From Candidatus Hermodarchaeota archaeon (GTDB lineage Archaea > Asgardarchaeota > Hermodarchaeia > Hermodarchaeales > Hermodarchaeaceae), in NCBI GenBank assembly GCA_016839365.1, contig JAEOUH010000026.1, positions 1 to 20,746 of the forward strand: a stretch of DNA of 20,746 nt, written 5' to 3'. Made by a program: the position numbers and the translations under genes. Position 1 is the first letter of the stretch; each line of letters begins with the position of its first letter. This document shows positions 43 through 18,483 of this stretch, one piece after another. The notes under the pieces are model-generated. The model saw only the letters and a list, made by a program, of their open reading frames with translations. It ran no database searches and was not told the DNA's origin.

Positions 43-1443
43 GTGGTCTCTATCATGTTTCCTGCCGTGTTTGCCATAATCTTGTTCGTGACGATAATTC
101 TTCTTATTATGCTAGACGTGATGGACCACACAGCTGCCGCCCTCATTGGAGGGGTAATTGCAATTTTCTATATGGCAATGATCTGGCCAGCATGGCGAGA
201 CGTAGTGATCACCTCTCATCCAGAAGCCAACTATGACCTTCTCCCTCCCAACTTCAGTGTTGTTGTTTTCGCTTTCTTTTTCAATAAATGGGTCGACCTC
301 CCCACGCTCATACTTATCCTTTCAATGATGGTCATCACTGAAATCGCAAAAGATTCTGGCGTCTTTCAATTCATCTCAGTACATGCAATCAAATTCACAA
401 AAGGCGATACTCGCAAGCTGCTGATTATTTTATGTGCCTTAAGCTTCGCCATGACCACCGTTCTAACTCAAATAACTACAATCTTGATTATGGGGACTTT
501 GACCTTTCTCGCCTGCGATGCTTTAGAAATTAATCCTGTGCCGTTTCTCATATCCATTGCTCTTGCCTCCAATGTCGGTGGAATTACATCGATGATAGCT
601 AGTGTCCCTGCGATGCTAGTTGCTGGAGCTACCCTCTATAGTTTCCCCTGGTTCATCATCAACATGATGCCATTAGGGCTGATATTAATCGCAGTCATGC
701 TGTTTGTGGTCCTGCGTCTCTTCCGTAAAGATCTCATCAAACCTCGACGCGCTCGGATTGAGGATCTCATGGAGCTTAATCCTTGGGAGATGGTTCCAAG
801 TCGCCCAGTATTTTACCGCACAGCCTTCCTCCTAATTCTCATCATTGCTGGATTCATTATCCTGGGATCAGCAGGACTTACATTTCTGGTTGCCCTGGGA
901 GGTGCACTCCTTTTTGTTGTGTTAAGCGGTATTCGACCTAGTCAAGTGTTTAAAGAAATTGAATGGTCTGCATTATTCTTCTTCATCGGCTTATTCTTTC
1001 TCGTGGGACTACTCGAGGAGTTCGGGGTACTACATGCAATAGGGTATGGAATACAAGCATTGACATTAGGTAATCCGTATATTGCTGCCACCTTGATGGT
1101 GTGGATCGCAGGAATGACCAGCGGGTTCGTCGATAATATTCCAGTGACTCTCACCTTCATACCTGTAGTTAATGTTCTGGCATCGGGTCCTACCCCGATC
1201 CCCGCAGGTGCCTTATGGGCATCCTTACTTGCTGGAGCTGTGTTAGGCGGCTGTCTTACCCCAATAGCCAGCGCGGCTAACGTCCTTGTCGTAACAATTT
1301 CCGAAAAAGAAGATCGTCCAATTCCCAAGAATCGGTTCCTATTTACTGGAGTGGTTCTAACTCTGTTGTTTCTTTTATTCAGCACGCTCTATTTATTACT
1401 CAGGATATTTCTACTACCCATCGCTGCTCCTTTCGGGCTATGA
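43..1443 (+). CDS. ArsB/NhaD/SLC13 (IT superfamily) anion/cation permease, P-protein-like; paralog 1
   Basis: 466 aa, highly hydrophobic multi-TM protein. Motifs MMVITEIAKDSGVFQ, ASNVGG, EIEWSALFFFIGLF, SGFVDNIP and LGGCLTPIASAAN are typical of this family. GTG start preceded by GGGTGTGA. Confidence 0.88.
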   Translation: MVSIMFPAVFAIILFVTIILLIMLDVMDHTAAALIGGVIAIFYMAMIWPAWRDVVITSHPEANYDLLPPNFSVVVFAFFFNKWVDLPTLILILSMMVITEIAKDSGVFQFISVHAIKFTKGDTRKLLIILCALSFAMTTVLTQITTILIMGTLTFLACDALEINPVPFLISIALASNVGGITSMIASVPAMLVAGATLYSFPWFIINMMPLGLILIAVMLFVVLRLFRKDLIKPRRARIEDLMELNPWEMVPSRPVFYRTAFLLILIIAGFIILGSAGLTFLVALGGALLFVVLSGIRPSQVFKEIEWSALFFFIGLFFLVGLLEEFGVLHAIGYGIQALTLGNPYIAATLMVWIAGMTSGFVDNIPVTLTFIPVVNVLASGPTPIPAGALWASLLAGAVLGGCLTPIASAANVLVVTISEKEDRPIPKNRFLFTGVVLTLLFLLFSTLYLLLRIFLLPIAAPFGL

Positions 1444-1456
1444 CTTTGGTAAATTC

Positions 1457-1490
1457 TTCGTCAAATCTAGTGAAAAGCTTATTTGACGAA
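1457..1490. promoter_or_regulatory. Perfect 10-bp inverted repeat TTCGTCAAAT-N14-ATTTGACGAA between the transporter paralogs
   Basis: Arms at 1457-1466 and 1481-1490, read directly. Could be an operator or an RNA hairpin. Confidence 0.45.
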
Positions 1491-1559
1491 TTACCCTTAA
1501 GAAATAATAAGAGACCTGACTATTAGCAGTCAGACCGTCCACTTTAGGGCGACGATAAT

Positions 1560-3029
1560 ATGCTGATGATTTATCCGGCTGTTTTCATCAGTCTGTTGTT
1601 TATCGCAGTCATTTTGATGATTACATTCGATATGACCGACCACACTATTGCCGCCCTCATTGGTGCATCAATCGCCATTATCTATTTTGCTCAGATATGG
1701 GAACCCTGGCGCCTATCACAGATTCAGATCTATACGGATCTAGCAAACGGTTTCCTTCCTGGCAGTCCTGAATATGAGCATTTCATGGAACAAGCGCTAG
1801 GCTATCAGTTTTTACCCATCGTGTTCAATGCTGAGGTTTTTGCTCACTTCTTCGGAGAATGGGTCGACCTGTCCACCATCATCGTGATTCTTTCTCTCAT
1901 GGTCATTACCGAGATTGCCAAGGACTCAGGGTTGTTTCAATTCATTGCAGTGAAAGCTCTCCGATTCAGTAAGGGATCACCCAGAAGGTTGTTGCTCATA
2001 TTTTGTGGACTTACCTTCGCCATGTCGACCGTACTGGCAACAACAGTTCTGATCATCGGTCCATTGACGATTCTTGCCTGTGATGCTTTGGAACAGAACC
2101 CTACACCCTACCTTATTGCGAATGCGATGTGTGGAAATGTAGGTGGTATTACCACCGTAATTGCGAGTGTTCCATGCATGTTAGTCGCTGGGGCAACATT
2201 CTATGACTTTGTTTGGTTTGCAGCCACCCTGCTCCCCTTAGGCTTAATCCTGCTTGGTGTAACGGGTATGGTTGCAATCAGGTTTTTCCGACGAAAGTTT
2301 TCCAAACCACGACCCAGTCGGGTTAATGATCTCATGGCCCTTGATGCCTGGACGATGGTAGAAGACCGTAACGTCTTCTACCGCACTGCCATCTTGTTTG
2401 TGGCGATGATTATTGGTTTCATCGTATTCGGGGTGGCAGGATTTACTTGGGTAGTAGCCTTTGTTATGGCCCTCCTTTTCGTTCTCCTCAGTGGGATTCC
2501 GACTGATCGCGTTTTCAAAGAAGTTGAATGGACGTCCTTATTCTTCTTCATTGGGTTATTCTTGATTGTTGGATGCATGGAAGAGGTTTGGGTCCTGACA
2601 TTCATTGGAGGGGTGATTTCTATACTCACTGGAGGCAGTCCAGCTGCTGCAACCGTGTCAATGCTGTGGTTAACCGGGTTTACCAGTGGAGCCATTGACA
2701 ACATTCCGGTGACAGCCACCTTAATACCTGTTGCCGACTCACTAACCCGGTTCCAAATGCTTCAAGGGGCTAATCCTGGCGGAGCCATTTGGTCAGCCCT
2801 TGTTGTAGGGGCCGTCTTGGGAGGTGCTTTAACTCCAATTGCTAGTGTGGCCAATGTGATGACCATGACTGTGGCTAATAAGGAGAATCGACCAATCTCC
2901 TACGGTGAATTTCTCCGAGCAGGGGCGCTCATGTTCTTCCTATACCTTCTGATCGGGACAGGCTATCTCCTCTTACGACTATTCTTCCTACCTATTCCTC
3001 TTCCACCCGCCTATTTCATCGGGGGCTAA
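1560..3029 (+). CDS. ArsB/NhaD/SLC13 (IT superfamily) permease, P-protein-like; paralog 2
   Basis: 489 aa, colinear with paralog 1 (LMVITEIAKDSGLFQ, GNVGG, EVEWTSLFFFIGLF, SGAIDNIP, LGGALTPIASVAN). The loop after TM2 is longer. Confidence 0.88.
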   Translation: MLMIYPAVFISLLFIAVILMITFDMTDHTIAALIGASIAIIYFAQIWEPWRLSQIQIYTDLANGFLPGSPEYEHFMEQALGYQFLPIVFNAEVFAHFFGEWVDLSTIIVILSLMVITEIAKDSGLFQFIAVKALRFSKGSPRRLLLIFCGLTFAMSTVLATTVLIIGPLTILACDALEQNPTPYLIANAMCGNVGGITTVIASVPCMLVAGATFYDFVWFAATLLPLGLILLGVTGMVAIRFFRRKFSKPRPSRVNDLMALDAWTMVEDRNVFYRTAILFVAMIIGFIVFGVAGFTWVVAFVMALLFVLLSGIPTDRVFKEVEWTSLFFFIGLFLIVGCMEEVWVLTFIGGVISILTGGSPAAATVSMLWLTGFTSGAIDNIPVTATLIPVADSLTRFQMLQGANPGGAIWSALVVGAVLGGALTPIASVANVMTMTVANKENRPISYGEFLRAGALMFFLYLLIGTGYLLLRLFFLPIPLPPAYFIGG

Positions 3030-3038
3030 TTCAAATAA

Positions 3039-3710
3039 TCAATGGAAGAAGAACCAGAGCAACCCGCCATACCCGCCAAAGACAAACCACACAATAGGTA
3101 GTGCAATTGCTTGGGCAAGGGCAAGGAAGGTGAGGACCAACAGGAAGGGCCGCGACCCCATGATGGTTGTAATCAAATCGAGGATGTTTTCAGCCCATTT
3201 GAAAAGGGTGAACACAACAACACCCACAATGATGAAGATGCCAATCAGGATATACTTCAATGGGATTTGCTGTGTAATGATTTCGGGTATGATCGGTGCT
3301 AGTGCAACGACTGCAACAACGGCAATGAGGCCTGCTGCAAGACCGATAAGGGCAGCCCAAGGCAATTTGTTGATGGGTGTAAGAAAGAGTGCAATTCCCA
3401 TCCATGCTAGGAGAAAGAGTGTCAGTGGATCACCGTAGATGTTAAGGCCAGGTGTAAGGAGTATTGCGGCAAAAGATACGAAGCATAGGATGCCCATGGG
3501 AATCCCAATTAGCCCAATAAGGCGGACCATGCCCCGACGCCAATCAATGGTTGGTGTGGCTTCACCTTTTCCTTCTTCGTCGTCTTTGTTAGAGCTGCTG
3601 GGTTGATAAGTATCACCCATAAGGTTGTCTAAGAACCAAGCGAATGCAGCCATTGCTCCTAAACCAAGGAACACAGGTGCAAGGTTTGCTAGAATTATTG
3701 TCCATGACAT
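3039..3710 (-). CDS. Hypothetical integral membrane protein (~6-7 TM)
   Basis: 223 aa ORF with alternating hydrophobic segments and an acidic loop after TM1. SD GGAGGT upstream of ATG. Converges on transporter 2 with a 9-bp gap. Confidence 0.8.
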   Translation of the reverse strand: MSWTIILANLAPVFLGLGAMAAFAWFLDNLMGDTYQPSSSNKDDEEGKGEATPTIDWRRGMVRLIGLIGIPMGILCFVSFAAILLTPGLNIYGDPLTLFLLAWMGIALFLTPINKLPWAALIGLAAGLIAVVAVVALAPIIPEIITQQIPLKYILIGIFIIVGVVVFTLFKWAENILDLITTIMGSRPFLLVLTFLALAQAIALPIVWFVFGGYGGLLWFFFH

Positions 3711-17012: not shown

Positions 17013-17489
17013 ATGAAGAGGGAAGAATTTGGAGGTTTTCTCTTGTCAGATCCAATGACCCGAATAACTAAGGCAACGATGGATTTGAAGAAATTCACCA
17101 GTGTGTTTAATTACTGGACTTTCCTTATCATTGTCATCTATGCAGTGCTTTTGTTTGGCAGTTTCCTCCTTCCCTTTGTCTTCGTAGAACCCTTTGTCGC
17201 CATTGTTGCAACTGTAACCTTGTTCTTCATCATAATTGCTTTTCTTGCCGTTCTTTTTGTTAAGGACACGCAGAAGGCAATTCTACTAACAATCATTCGA
17301 GCTTTCATCGGTGCAGTTCTACCCATAGCATTAATTGTCCTTAGTGTTGGTCCACTAAGCGTATACATCAAGCTCCTAGGAGTTGCACTGTTGCTCGTTG
17401 GGTTAATCATTCTCTACTTCCTTCTACGCCCATTGCTAACCATGAATGCTGCAACAAAGGAGCTGCTTAAAGGCCTAAAACCCAAGTAG
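17013..17489 (+). CDS. Hypothetical four-TM membrane protein
   Basis: Four hydrophobic helices and a basic C-terminus. The true start may be the in-frame TTG at 17043, 6 nt after GGAGGT (17031-17036). Confidence 0.78.
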   Translation: MKREEFGGFLLSDPMTRITKATMDLKKFTSVFNYWTFLIIVIYAVLLFGSFLLPFVFVEPFVAIVATVTLFFIIIAFLAVLFVKDTQKAILLTIIRAFIGAVLPIALIVLSVGPLSVYIKLLGVALLLVGLIILYFLLRPLLTMNAATKELLKGLKPK

Positions 17490-17536
17490 GCCCACCATCA
17501 GAAACTCCTAAAGGGTACGACAGCGTCCTATTCAAT

Positions 17537-17781
17537 GAGCATGCGGACGTCAACGATGACGAACATGCACCTAACCAGAGCCACTCATCACGGCGTATGA
17601 CGGAATTGATCTGCTCGGAGGTTAGCGTCCGCAGCTCGCATTTTATAAACAGAATTTAATGGGATTGAGGCTAGAAATGGCTCGATCTCAATGCATGAGC
17701 TGTGCAAACATCGGGAGCACAACTGGTTATTCTTCTCGGGTTCAAACATGTCAAGGACTTTTGTAGTGCTCCAAATTTGCG
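17537..17781 (+). ncRNA. Candidate structured non-coding RNA / cis-regulatory element of unknown family
   Basis: Several hand-found helices of 7-13 bp in a 382-bp intergenic gap. G-U pairs and a GAAA tetraloop favour the + strand. I recognise no known family consensus. Confidence 0.4.
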
Positions 17782-17816
17782 AGTAACAATGTTTCAAAAC
17801 CTCTAGCGTACAGTGA

Positions 17817-17850
17817 ATAAAACTTGAATAGTTAACGACAAGTTTTATAT
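17817..17850 (+). promoter_or_regulatory. Perfect inverted repeat ATAAAACTTG-N12-CAAGTTTTAT overlapping the TATA box (TTTTATAT) of the PRTase gene
   Basis: Arms at 17817-17826 and 17839-17848. TATA at 17843-17850 ends 21 nt before ATG 17872 (leaderless spacing). Confidence 0.55.
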
Positions 17851-17871
17851 CTAGGATAGATATCTAGCAAT

Positions 17872-18483
17872 ATGGCAATCACGTACGAATTCGTTTGGTG
17901 GGAGCGGCTCTACGAACTGTGTTTTTTGCTCTATGAGATGATCGTAGATTCAGGATATCAACCTGATGTCATTGTCGGGGTTGCACGTGGAGGGTGGATT
18001 CCCGCTCGAATTCTCTCTGATCTCTTTTTCACACGGGATACTGCAAATGTTAAAGTGGATTTGTATCGGGGAATCTATGCAAGGGATCAAGAGCCCCAGA
18101 TCAGCCAAAAAATCCCACGTGATATGAAGTGGGAAAGCCCCCTACTAGTTGATGACATTTCTGATACAGGGGACAGTCTGACGGTGGCTGGAGAACATCT
18201 GAAACAACGAGGTTATAAGAATCCCCGAACAGCGACGATGCACATGAAACCATGGACAAAATTAGTTCCAGACTATTATGTGGTGAAAACCGAAGCCTGG
18301 GTTGTCTACCCCTGGGAGTTAAAGGAATTTACATTTAATTTGTCGTCGCGTCTAGCGAAAGAGGGGAAATCCCGGCATGAAATCGCTGGACACTTATTCG
18401 AAGTTGGAGTGCCTATCCACTATGCGAAGCTTTTCCTTGAACAGTGGTTTGAACTAAATGAGCAAAGAGCTTCCAGGGAATAA
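17872..18483 (+). CDS. Type I phosphoribosyltransferase, archaeal hypoxanthine/guanine/xanthine PRTase-like
   Basis: VIVGVARGGWIPARILSD, PRPP-binding LLVDDISDTGDSL, PDYY and WVVYPWE. Confidence 0.9.
   Translation: MAITYEFVWWERLYELCFLLYEMIVDSGYQPDVIVGVARGGWIPARILSDLFFTRDTANVKVDLYRGIYARDQEPQISQKIPRDMKWESPLLVDDISDTGDSLTVAGEHLKQRGYKNPRTATMHMKPWTKLVPDYYVVKTEAWVVYPWELKEFTFNLSSRLAKEGKSRHEIAGHLFEVGVPIHYAKLFLEQWFELNEQRASRE

Follow-up and report, generated by a model that had tools for sequence, protein, structure and literature searches.

A conserved RNA gene of Hermodarchaeia is a probable double-guide box C/D sRNA directed to helix 34 of 16S rRNA

We analysed a stretch of 20,746 nt (the window), which is contig C82 of the source genome (G000, 2.2 Mb, 84% complete). 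Our results suggested that positions 17537-17644 of the plus strand form an independent gene of this Hermodarchaeia archaeon that encodes an atypical box C/D sRNA with two guides, and we put the probability of this reading at about 0.82. The two guides are complementary to the two strands of helix 34 in 16S rRNA, and the sRNA probably directs 2'-O-methylation of both strands. Methylation of at least the site equivalent to yeast Gm1428 is somewhat favoured.

The RNA lies in the gap 17490-17871, between a gene for a 158-aa protein (orf158) and a phosphoribosyltransferase (PRTase) gene. A gene of the IF-2B/MtnA family (mtnA) sits upstream of orf158. The main features of the locus are as follows.

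17013-17489: orf158, 158 aa, hydrophobic and without a Pfam match; the product looks like a multi-pass membrane protein
17500-17513, plus strand: BRE/TATA-like box AGAAAC TCCTAAAG, putative promoter, 23 nt upstream of the terminal stem
17641-17644, plus strand: T-run, putative transcription stop
17832-17871, plus strand: promoter-like block of the PRTase gene itself, with a TATA-like TTTTATAT at 17843-17850, about 21 nt before the ATG
17872-18483: PRTase gene (PF00156), ATG at 17872

When the genomes of the genus were searched with the DNA, only about 17498-17645 was conserved across relatives (77-93% identity in 13/14 genus genomes), and the remaining gap sequence had a match only in the closest relative among these 14 genomes. 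The mean column identity of the RNA was 89% over 14 species, with invariant runs of 40 nt, whereas the neighbouring orf158 protein was 46-86% identical; the RNA is far better conserved than the genes flanking it. An earlier note on this DNA had described an element of about 250 nt. About 105 nt of it, from stem to stem at 17537-17637, is conserved, but its downstream parts (hairpin B, element C and helix A'') were found in the closest relatives only. Both DNA and model searches gave a single copy of the RNA in the genome, and the region is therefore not a MITE.

To describe the distribution, a covariance model was built from 14 sequences and run on Asgard genomes. The model found the RNA in 13/14 genus genomes and in one of the four genomes of the sister genus (G017, whose sequence is L046, 82.7 bits). 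The class-level and the order-level genome sets were identical, with the same 19 genomes in each. No convincing match to the model was observed in 132 other Asgard genomes, a sample of incomplete assemblies, and because the genomes searched are incomplete samples, the RNA is described here as not found in those searched rather than as absent. Weak matches in G037 (26 bits) and G148 (21 bits) had neither the hairpin P2 nor the boxes described below, and were taken as chance. When genome and metagenome collections were scanned with patterns and then with the model, 22 matches were obtained, 19 of them distinct, GC-richer variants included. Several metagenome contigs also carry the RNA, and all carriers belong to Hermodarchaeia (Asgard).

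The conserved RNA is about 105 nt long and contains two helices that are kept across the homologues.

17537-17550, plus strand: 5' strand of the terminal stem P1, GAGC-a-UGCGGACGU; 13 pairs with 17625-17637 and one bulged base
17625-17637, plus strand: 3' strand of P1, pairing with 17537-17550
17580-17594, plus strand: hairpin P2 between boxes D' and C', with a GCCA/CGGC stem and the 7-nt loop CUCAUCA

P1 was paired in 97.6-98.7% of cells over the 19 distinct sequences, with changes on both sides at 3 pairs. Several of its G.U wobbles would be A.C mismatches on the minus strand, which places the RNA on the plus strand. The claim of the earlier note that the gap contains an unannotated structured ncRNA, with G.U pairs that favour the plus strand, was thus borne out. 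The closing pair of P2 is A-U in 12 of the distinct sequences, G-C in 5 and C-G in 1, and it is an A.C mismatch in the source genome. The loop CUCAUCA is identical in 19/19.

Folding statistics were calculated against shuffled sequences. The region 17537-17781 (z -2.33) and its part 17537-17637, called element A (z -2.47), folded better than shuffles, as did hairpin B and element C downstream, but the whole gap 17490-17871 did not (z -0.93 on the plus strand and -0.13 on the minus strand). All of the helices listed in the earlier note were present at their positions, and they differ in conservation. The helices inside P1 (CTAACC/GGTTAG and GAGC/GCTC) were paired in just 80-83% of cells, with two positions broken in more than half of the sequences. 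Covariation was therefore seen for the outer part of the proposed fold, with the three both-sided changes of P1, but not for these inner helices, which showed no compensatory change. The competing hairpin A' was paired in 92% of cells, a value reached by 43/500 shuffles, and its single double change occurs together with unrelated changes in the same lineages, so that it is confounded by phylogeny. The conserved bases of A' can be explained by box C and the first guide. Helix A'' falls beyond the conserved block, and its pairing is disrupted in the relative G007. An all-against-all test of column covariation was too noisy at the available depth; alignment position 31, for example, 'covaries' equally with 8, 57 and 114, which reflects phylogeny.

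The spacer downstream of the RNA (17646-17830) is common only to the source genome, the metagenome contig L070 (91% identity) and G007 (83%). Two of the earlier structures lie here.

17660-17690, plus strand: hairpin B, outside the sRNA; z -4.2 on the plus strand only; found in G000, L070 and G007 only
17704-17781, plus strand: element C, z -2.46; 2-3 of its 7 core pairs are broken in the two close relatives

The spacer had no other copies in the genome, and tblastn against the PRTase paralogue and the HAD gene, one or other of which occupies its place in other lineages, detected no coding remnant. A multi-copy MITE or a decayed coding sequence, either of which the earlier note had named as possible refutations, was thus not what the region turned out to be. 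The pairs of hairpin B are kept in its three carriers through two one-sided changes, and it is possibly a lineage-specific, very local feature of the spacer. Element C and helix A'' are regarded as chance.

The surroundings of the RNA bear on whether it is a gene of its own or the leader of the PRTase gene. The genes mtnA and orf158 are its invariable 5' neighbours, on the same strand in all homologues. The downstream gene differs among genomes: it is a PRTase paralogue (about 60 nt 3' of the RNA), the PRTase of the window (40-230 nt 3') or a set of three opposite-strand ORFs. A box of the form RAAAC-NNN-TWAA stands in every homologue at a fixed distance of about 23-25 nt 5' of the terminal stem, divergent members included. 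It resembles the boxes found 5' of tRNA genes in this genome, for instance AAATCTTTAAAGG before tRNA-Ser, and may well act as promoter. Almost every homologue has a T-rich stretch after P1, and the T-run at 17641-17644 is likely to be the transcription stop, of the archaeal oligo-T type. The promoter-like block of the PRTase gene is kept across the genus wherever the PRTase of the window occurs, independent of the sRNA. As the RNA has its own box and T-run, the PRTase gene has its own block and the downstream gene varies, the simplest view is that the RNA is a gene in its own right rather than a PRTase leader.

The earlier note had proposed a two-state switch instead, possibly a riboswitch for a signal related to purine, PRPP or SAM, and a cis-acting riboswitch or leader with two folds would control the purine PRTase downstream. 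The PRTase, be it the paralogue or that of the window, does follow on the same strand within 40-230 nt in many genomes, the T-run comes right after the terminal stem, and the pairing of the alternative hairpin A' would agree with a second fold. However, in at least six species genomes the opposite-strand ORFs come next and the conservation of the RNA is undiminished; G014, which had the best model score of all, is one of these. The RNA and the PRTase have separate promoter-like elements, and the helices that a switch needs are either unconserved (A'' and the inner helices) or barely above shuffles (A'). No riboswitch of Rfam matched at E<=10, and the invariant segments of the RNA are accounted for by the boxes and guides set out below. 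The two-state switch found no support in these results, and we consider control of the PRTase by a riboswitch hardly credible.

Known classes of RNA were also compared with the region. Rfam release 15, which includes C/D sRNAs and riboswitches, gave no match at the gathering score in the window, nor at E<=10 in 17400-17950, and ARAGORN found no tRNA; both agree with the earlier view that no tRNA, SRP RNA, RNase P RNA or known riboswitch is present here. The RNase P, SRP and 5S RNAs were all located elsewhere in the genome. An H/ACA sRNA does not fit, as there is no pseudouridylation pocket and RCN rather than ANA follows the stem. A tRNA-like RNA or tRNA-Sec reading through the CUCAUCA loop was rejected as well, since the 13-bp closing stem is no acceptor or T arm and the loop lacks the register of U33 and anticodon. 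The core motifs of the hammerhead and other small ribozymes were unfit and Rfam was silent on them. A SECIS element was discarded in view of the normal end of the upstream gene and the RNA's own promoter-like box.

The order of boxes points to a box C/D sRNA. Archaeal RNAs of this class have the consensus RUGAUGA for box C and CUGA for box D, and their spacers from C to D' and from C' to D measure about 12 nt. The corresponding elements of the source genome are listed below.

17556-17562, plus strand: box C, AUGACGA (consensus RUGAUGA); AUGANGA in all homologues
17563-17575, plus strand: D' guide, 13 nt, ACAUGCACCUAAC
17576-17579, plus strand: box D', CAGA; CUGA, CCGA or UUGA in relatives, with GA invariant
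17597-17603, plus strand: box C', AUGACGG; an AUGACGR motif like box C, with AUGA invariant
17604-17615, plus strand: D guide, 12 nt, AAUUGAUCUGCU; AACUGAUCUGCN in most relatives
17616-17619, plus strand: box D, CGGA in the source genome

One register of boxes fits 19/19 sequences: C, guide, D', P2, C', guide, D, a 5-nt linker and the stem. The spacers are 13 nt (C to D') and 12 nt (C' to D) in the source genome and most relatives. The second is 17 nt, with 5 extra nt, in the GC-rich metagenome variants L063, L072 and L066 and in G017 (L046). All four boxes of the source genome are off consensus (AUGACGA, CAGA, AUGACGG and CGGA). Box C is the canonical AUGAUGA in 2 of the 19 distinct sequences (L072 and L046), and box D is CUGA in 9, CGGA in 7, CCGA in 2 and UUGA in 1. 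Each of the four boxes keeps its tandem G-A bases in 19/19 sequences. An alternative register, with GAUGA as box C and CUGA at 17606-17609 (UUGA in the source genome) as box D, leaves a 'guide' of 5 nt and no stem. A minus-strand reading (AUGAUGA ... CUGA) was rejected, as the wobbles are valid on the plus strand only and its spacing is wrong.

The bases around the boxes were examined for kink-turns. In the C'/D' motif, the position after the G-A bases is never a Watson-Crick pair. C 17576 of box D' pairs with G 17602 of box C', and this pair is U-A in G017, which is a both-sided change. This is the pattern to be expected of a kink-turn, save for a bulge of 4 nt instead of 3 nt. At the terminal motif, G 17617 of box D can pair with C 17560 (position 5 of box C) in place of the usual U.U, and no clean stem adjoins the putative kink-turn, as only a 5x5 internal loop stands before P1. 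The genes for fibrillarin (292 bits) and a Nop-domain protein, Nop5 (225 bits), are adjacent on contig C15 of the same genome. A search of this genome with a strict pattern gave just one canonical C/D sRNA.

Taken together, the features suggest how the sRNA would work. It would be transcribed from its own BRE/TATA-like box at 17500-17513, would end in the T-run after the terminal stem, and would be closed by the 13-bp stem. Boxes C and D would form the terminal kink-turn, boxes D' and C', capped by P2, would form an internal one, and L7Ae, Nop5 and fibrillarin would assemble on both. Of the two strands of helix 34, the 5' strand would then be bound by the 13-nt D' guide and the 3' strand by the 12-nt D guide. 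Counted upstream from each D-type box, the fifth base of the guide would mark the rRNA base that fibrillarin 2'-O-methylates. Holding both strands may also aid the folding of helix 34.

The targets were identified on L038, a 16S fragment from the relative G007 and the sole fragment of the genus that covers the region. In the D' guide, CAUGCACCU forms 9 Watson-Crick pairs with AGGUGCAUG at 810-818 of L038. This duplex spans guide positions 4-12 instead of 2-11, and the fifth base points at G811. The D guide pairs with GGCAGGUCAGU at 964-974 of L038 by 11 bp, 3 of them G.U in the source genome (10 bp with 1 G.U for the consensus guide). Its duplex begins at position 1-2 from box D, and the fifth base is opposite G968. 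From the standard 16S secondary structure, we take 810-818 and 964-974 to be the 5' and 3' strands of helix 34. The UGAUCUG of the D guide is invariant, and the C after it is replaced by A in L057 only. The paired cores of the guides showed only A to G and C to U substitutions, by which pairing with a fixed target is kept through wobbles. Three other Asgard genomes likewise have the D-guide target GCAGGUCAGU in their 16S rRNA.

In the box-anchored search, both guides had their best match in helix 34 of the Hermodarchaeia 16S fragment, one on each strand; LSU and parts of SSU of the genus were unassembled, and better guide targets elsewhere are possible. For the D' guide, a 10-bp LSU match with two G.U scored equally well. 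When the 6.9 kb of rRNA is taken as a whole, neither match by itself exceeds chance, as 55/300 and 47/300 shuffles equalled them, and a blind antisense search of rRNA with the whole RNA gave nothing above shuffles. The informative test of the targets was the one anchored to the boxes and restricted to helix windows. Here, shuffled guides matched the two 45-nt windows of helix 34 equally well with frequencies of 3e-4 and 1e-3, jointly 3e-7, and allowing for an estimated 100-150 rRNA helices the joint chance would be about 1e-5 to 1e-4. These numbers bear on the idea that the RNA belongs to some other, undescribed kink-turn RNP and that its box order and its complementarity to helix 34 are coincidental. 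Such an RNP would suit the missing Rfam family, the unusual size and shape (105 nt, a 13-bp stem and an invariant hairpin loop) and the fact that each guide match is singly within chance. But it leaves the low joint chance, both over the two windows and over all helices, and the 13-nt and 12-nt spacers with four ordered boxes would all have to be accidents. We regard this coincidence as very unlikely.

The box C/D reading can be compared with the archaeal double-guide sRNAs that act with L7Ae, Nop5 and fibrillarin, such as the Pyrococcus and Sulfolobus sR families in Rfam. The RNA shares with them the order C-D'-C'-D, spacers of 12-13 nt and two guides to one rRNA region, its D guide obeys the fifth-base rule, and fibrillarin and Nop5 are encoded. 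Archaeal C/D sRNAs are about 50-70 nt long with short D'-C' loops. Unlike them, the RNA described here has about 105 nt, a 13-bp terminal stem set off from the C/D motif by the 5x5 loop, and a 15-nt hairpin with invariant loop between D' and C'. Its boxes, AUGACGA/CGGA and AUGACGG/CAGA against RUGAUGA/CUGA, also differ, and no Rfam model matches. In its larger size (about 105 nt) and its structured D'-C' stretch, the RNA is more like a eukaryotic snoRNA.

The eukaryotic helix 34 is methylated at two sites, which in human have the snoRNAs SNORD25 (Gm1490) and SNORD32A (Gm1328). In yeast, Gm1271 of helix 34 is guided by snR40 and has the equivalents Gm1328 in human and Gm1272 in Arabidopsis, and Gm1428 is guided by snR56 and has the equivalents Gm1490 and Gm1431 (PMC2794176). 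The base after G1271 is U, because the same snR40 guide pairs its A26 with U563 next to G562 (PMC4344503). The sites were mapped with the tiled antisense oligos 18S-32 to 18S-36 of yeast 18S rRNA (PMC5199042), whose table was machine-read and two of whose 49-mers were corrected to 50 nt. From the G just before UGCAUGG to the first G of CAGGUC the distance is 157 nt, which equals 1428-1271, and no neighbouring pair of G fits. The 157-nt spacing and the U after G1271 together put the fifth base of the D guide opposite the exact equivalent of Gm1428/Gm1490, which is the first G of CAGGUC.

The D' guide is less exact. In the source genome and 15 other variants, its fifth base is opposite the G immediately 5' of the equivalent of Gm1271/Gm1328. 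The exact equivalent is targeted in three variants whose D' guide is one base shorter (L057, L042 and L068). Compared with snR56/SNORD25 and snR40/SNORD32A, the D-guide site is thus the same, and the D' site is the same G or its 5' neighbour. Eukaryotes use two separate snoRNAs for helix 34, whereas in Hermodarchaeia both guides are on one RNA. The likeness to these snoRNAs is one of target sites, and shared ancestry is speculation.

The inexact D' guide is also what might be expected of a box C/D-type RNP that binds helix 34 without methylating it, either as a folding chaperone or as a guide for another enzyme, for example a cytidine acetyltransferase. Yeast snR4 guides ac4C1280 in helix 34, and snR4 and human SNORD13 are box C/D snoRNAs that guide cytidine acetylation. 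The present RNA, too, would bind helix 34 near a CCG motif, which lies directly 3' of the D' target (L038 820-822). The degenerate boxes, the offset D' duplex with its site one base off, the pairing with the two strands of a single helix and the unexplained invariance of the hairpin loop would agree with such a role. Nevertheless, the D guide is canonical, with a 12-nt spacer, a duplex starting at position 1-2 and the fifth base at a conserved Gm equivalent. For acetylation in particular, snR4 and SNORD13 use two antisense elements that flank the unpaired C of the CCG motif on one strand. In contrast, the antisense elements of the present RNA pair with opposite strands and end beside D-type boxes, with no unpaired C of a single strand between them. 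The only pairing that reaches CCG uses bases of box C and leaves G819 and C820 unpaired, not the middle C. We therefore judge a non-methylating RNP to be improbable, and keep the methylation guide as the preferred reading.

For these genomes, in which almost no small RNAs have been described, the present work adds an unannotated RNA gene and a search model. It also removes a false lead, as nothing here supports an archaeal purine riboswitch. Degenerate boxes and an unusual shape can hide box C/D RNAs of these archaea from standard detection. It is conceivable, though unlikely, that the RNA shares descent with the eukaryotic snoRNAs and that one Asgard RNA thus installs both helix 34 methylations, Gm1428/Gm1490 and Gm1271/Gm1328 or its neighbour. 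If it were true, the long stem, the structured D'-C' insert and the length of about 105 nt would represent a form ancestral to the eukaryotic helix 34 snoRNAs, and the CUCAUCA loop would serve an extra pairing with pre-rRNA or a regulated masking of the RNA's own C box. In conclusion, our results predict two rRNA modifications in the decoding region of the Asgard ribosome, at or beside positions that are conserved in yeast, human and plants, and they are relevant to the question of which part of the rRNA modification pattern of eukaryotes is older than the eukaryotes themselves.

The loop of P2, the hairpin between the D' and C' boxes of the proposed atypical double-guide box C/D sRNA, is the 7-nt CUCAUCA (window 17584-17590), and it was the same in 19 of the 19 distinct homologues. 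The guide model left this invariance unaccounted for. CUCAUCA can pair with UGAUGA of the 16S rRNA, at 782-787 in the 16S fragment L038 from the relative G007; this site precedes the D' target by some 25 nt on the 5' side, and a match of six bases within such a distance could be due to chance (roughly 0.06). The loop is also complementary to GAUGA within the sRNA's own C box.

Downstream of the sRNA, the spacer holds a second structure:

17660-17690, plus strand: hairpin B, 10 bp including three G.U pairs, z -4.2 on the plus strand only

Its pairs were preserved in the window's genome, the close metagenome contig L070 and G007, with two one-sided changes, and the stretch holding it was missing from the other genomes.

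More distant relatives have the gene order mtnA-orf158-sRNA-PRTase paralogue-(HAD)-second PRTase, as in two homologous contigs:

L042 (oriented) 1364-3427: layout with two PRTases
L063 2064-3364: layout with two PRTases

The first paralogue shared 48-51% identity with the window PRTase (17872-18483) and the second 67-76%. The first paralogue is lost from the window; in other species its place is taken by three opposite-strand genes.

In another Asgard family, a 77-nt stretch (L031, G037:C269:3601-3677) matched the covariance model weakly (26 bits). It has the closing stem and GACGAACAUG in common with the sRNA and is without P2 and boxes. The match is probably due to chance, though L031 could be a remote relative.

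No rRNA genes were detected in the window's genome. Some Asgard rRNA genes far exceed the span of the Rfam model (1560 nt for 830 LSU model positions in the G007 LSU 3' part, L037; 2426 nt for the G029 SSU, L079), and these lengths suggest insertions or introns.

The strict double-box pattern returned just one canonical C/D sRNA candidate in the window's 2.2-Mb genome and 0 matches in its reversed-sequence control. The genome also carries the genes for Nop5 and fibrillarin:

C13:1498-1553, minus strand: canonical C/D sRNA candidate
C15:8299-9797, same strand, adjoining: Nop5 (Nop domain) and fibrillarin genes

Further guides may be as degenerate as the window sRNA.
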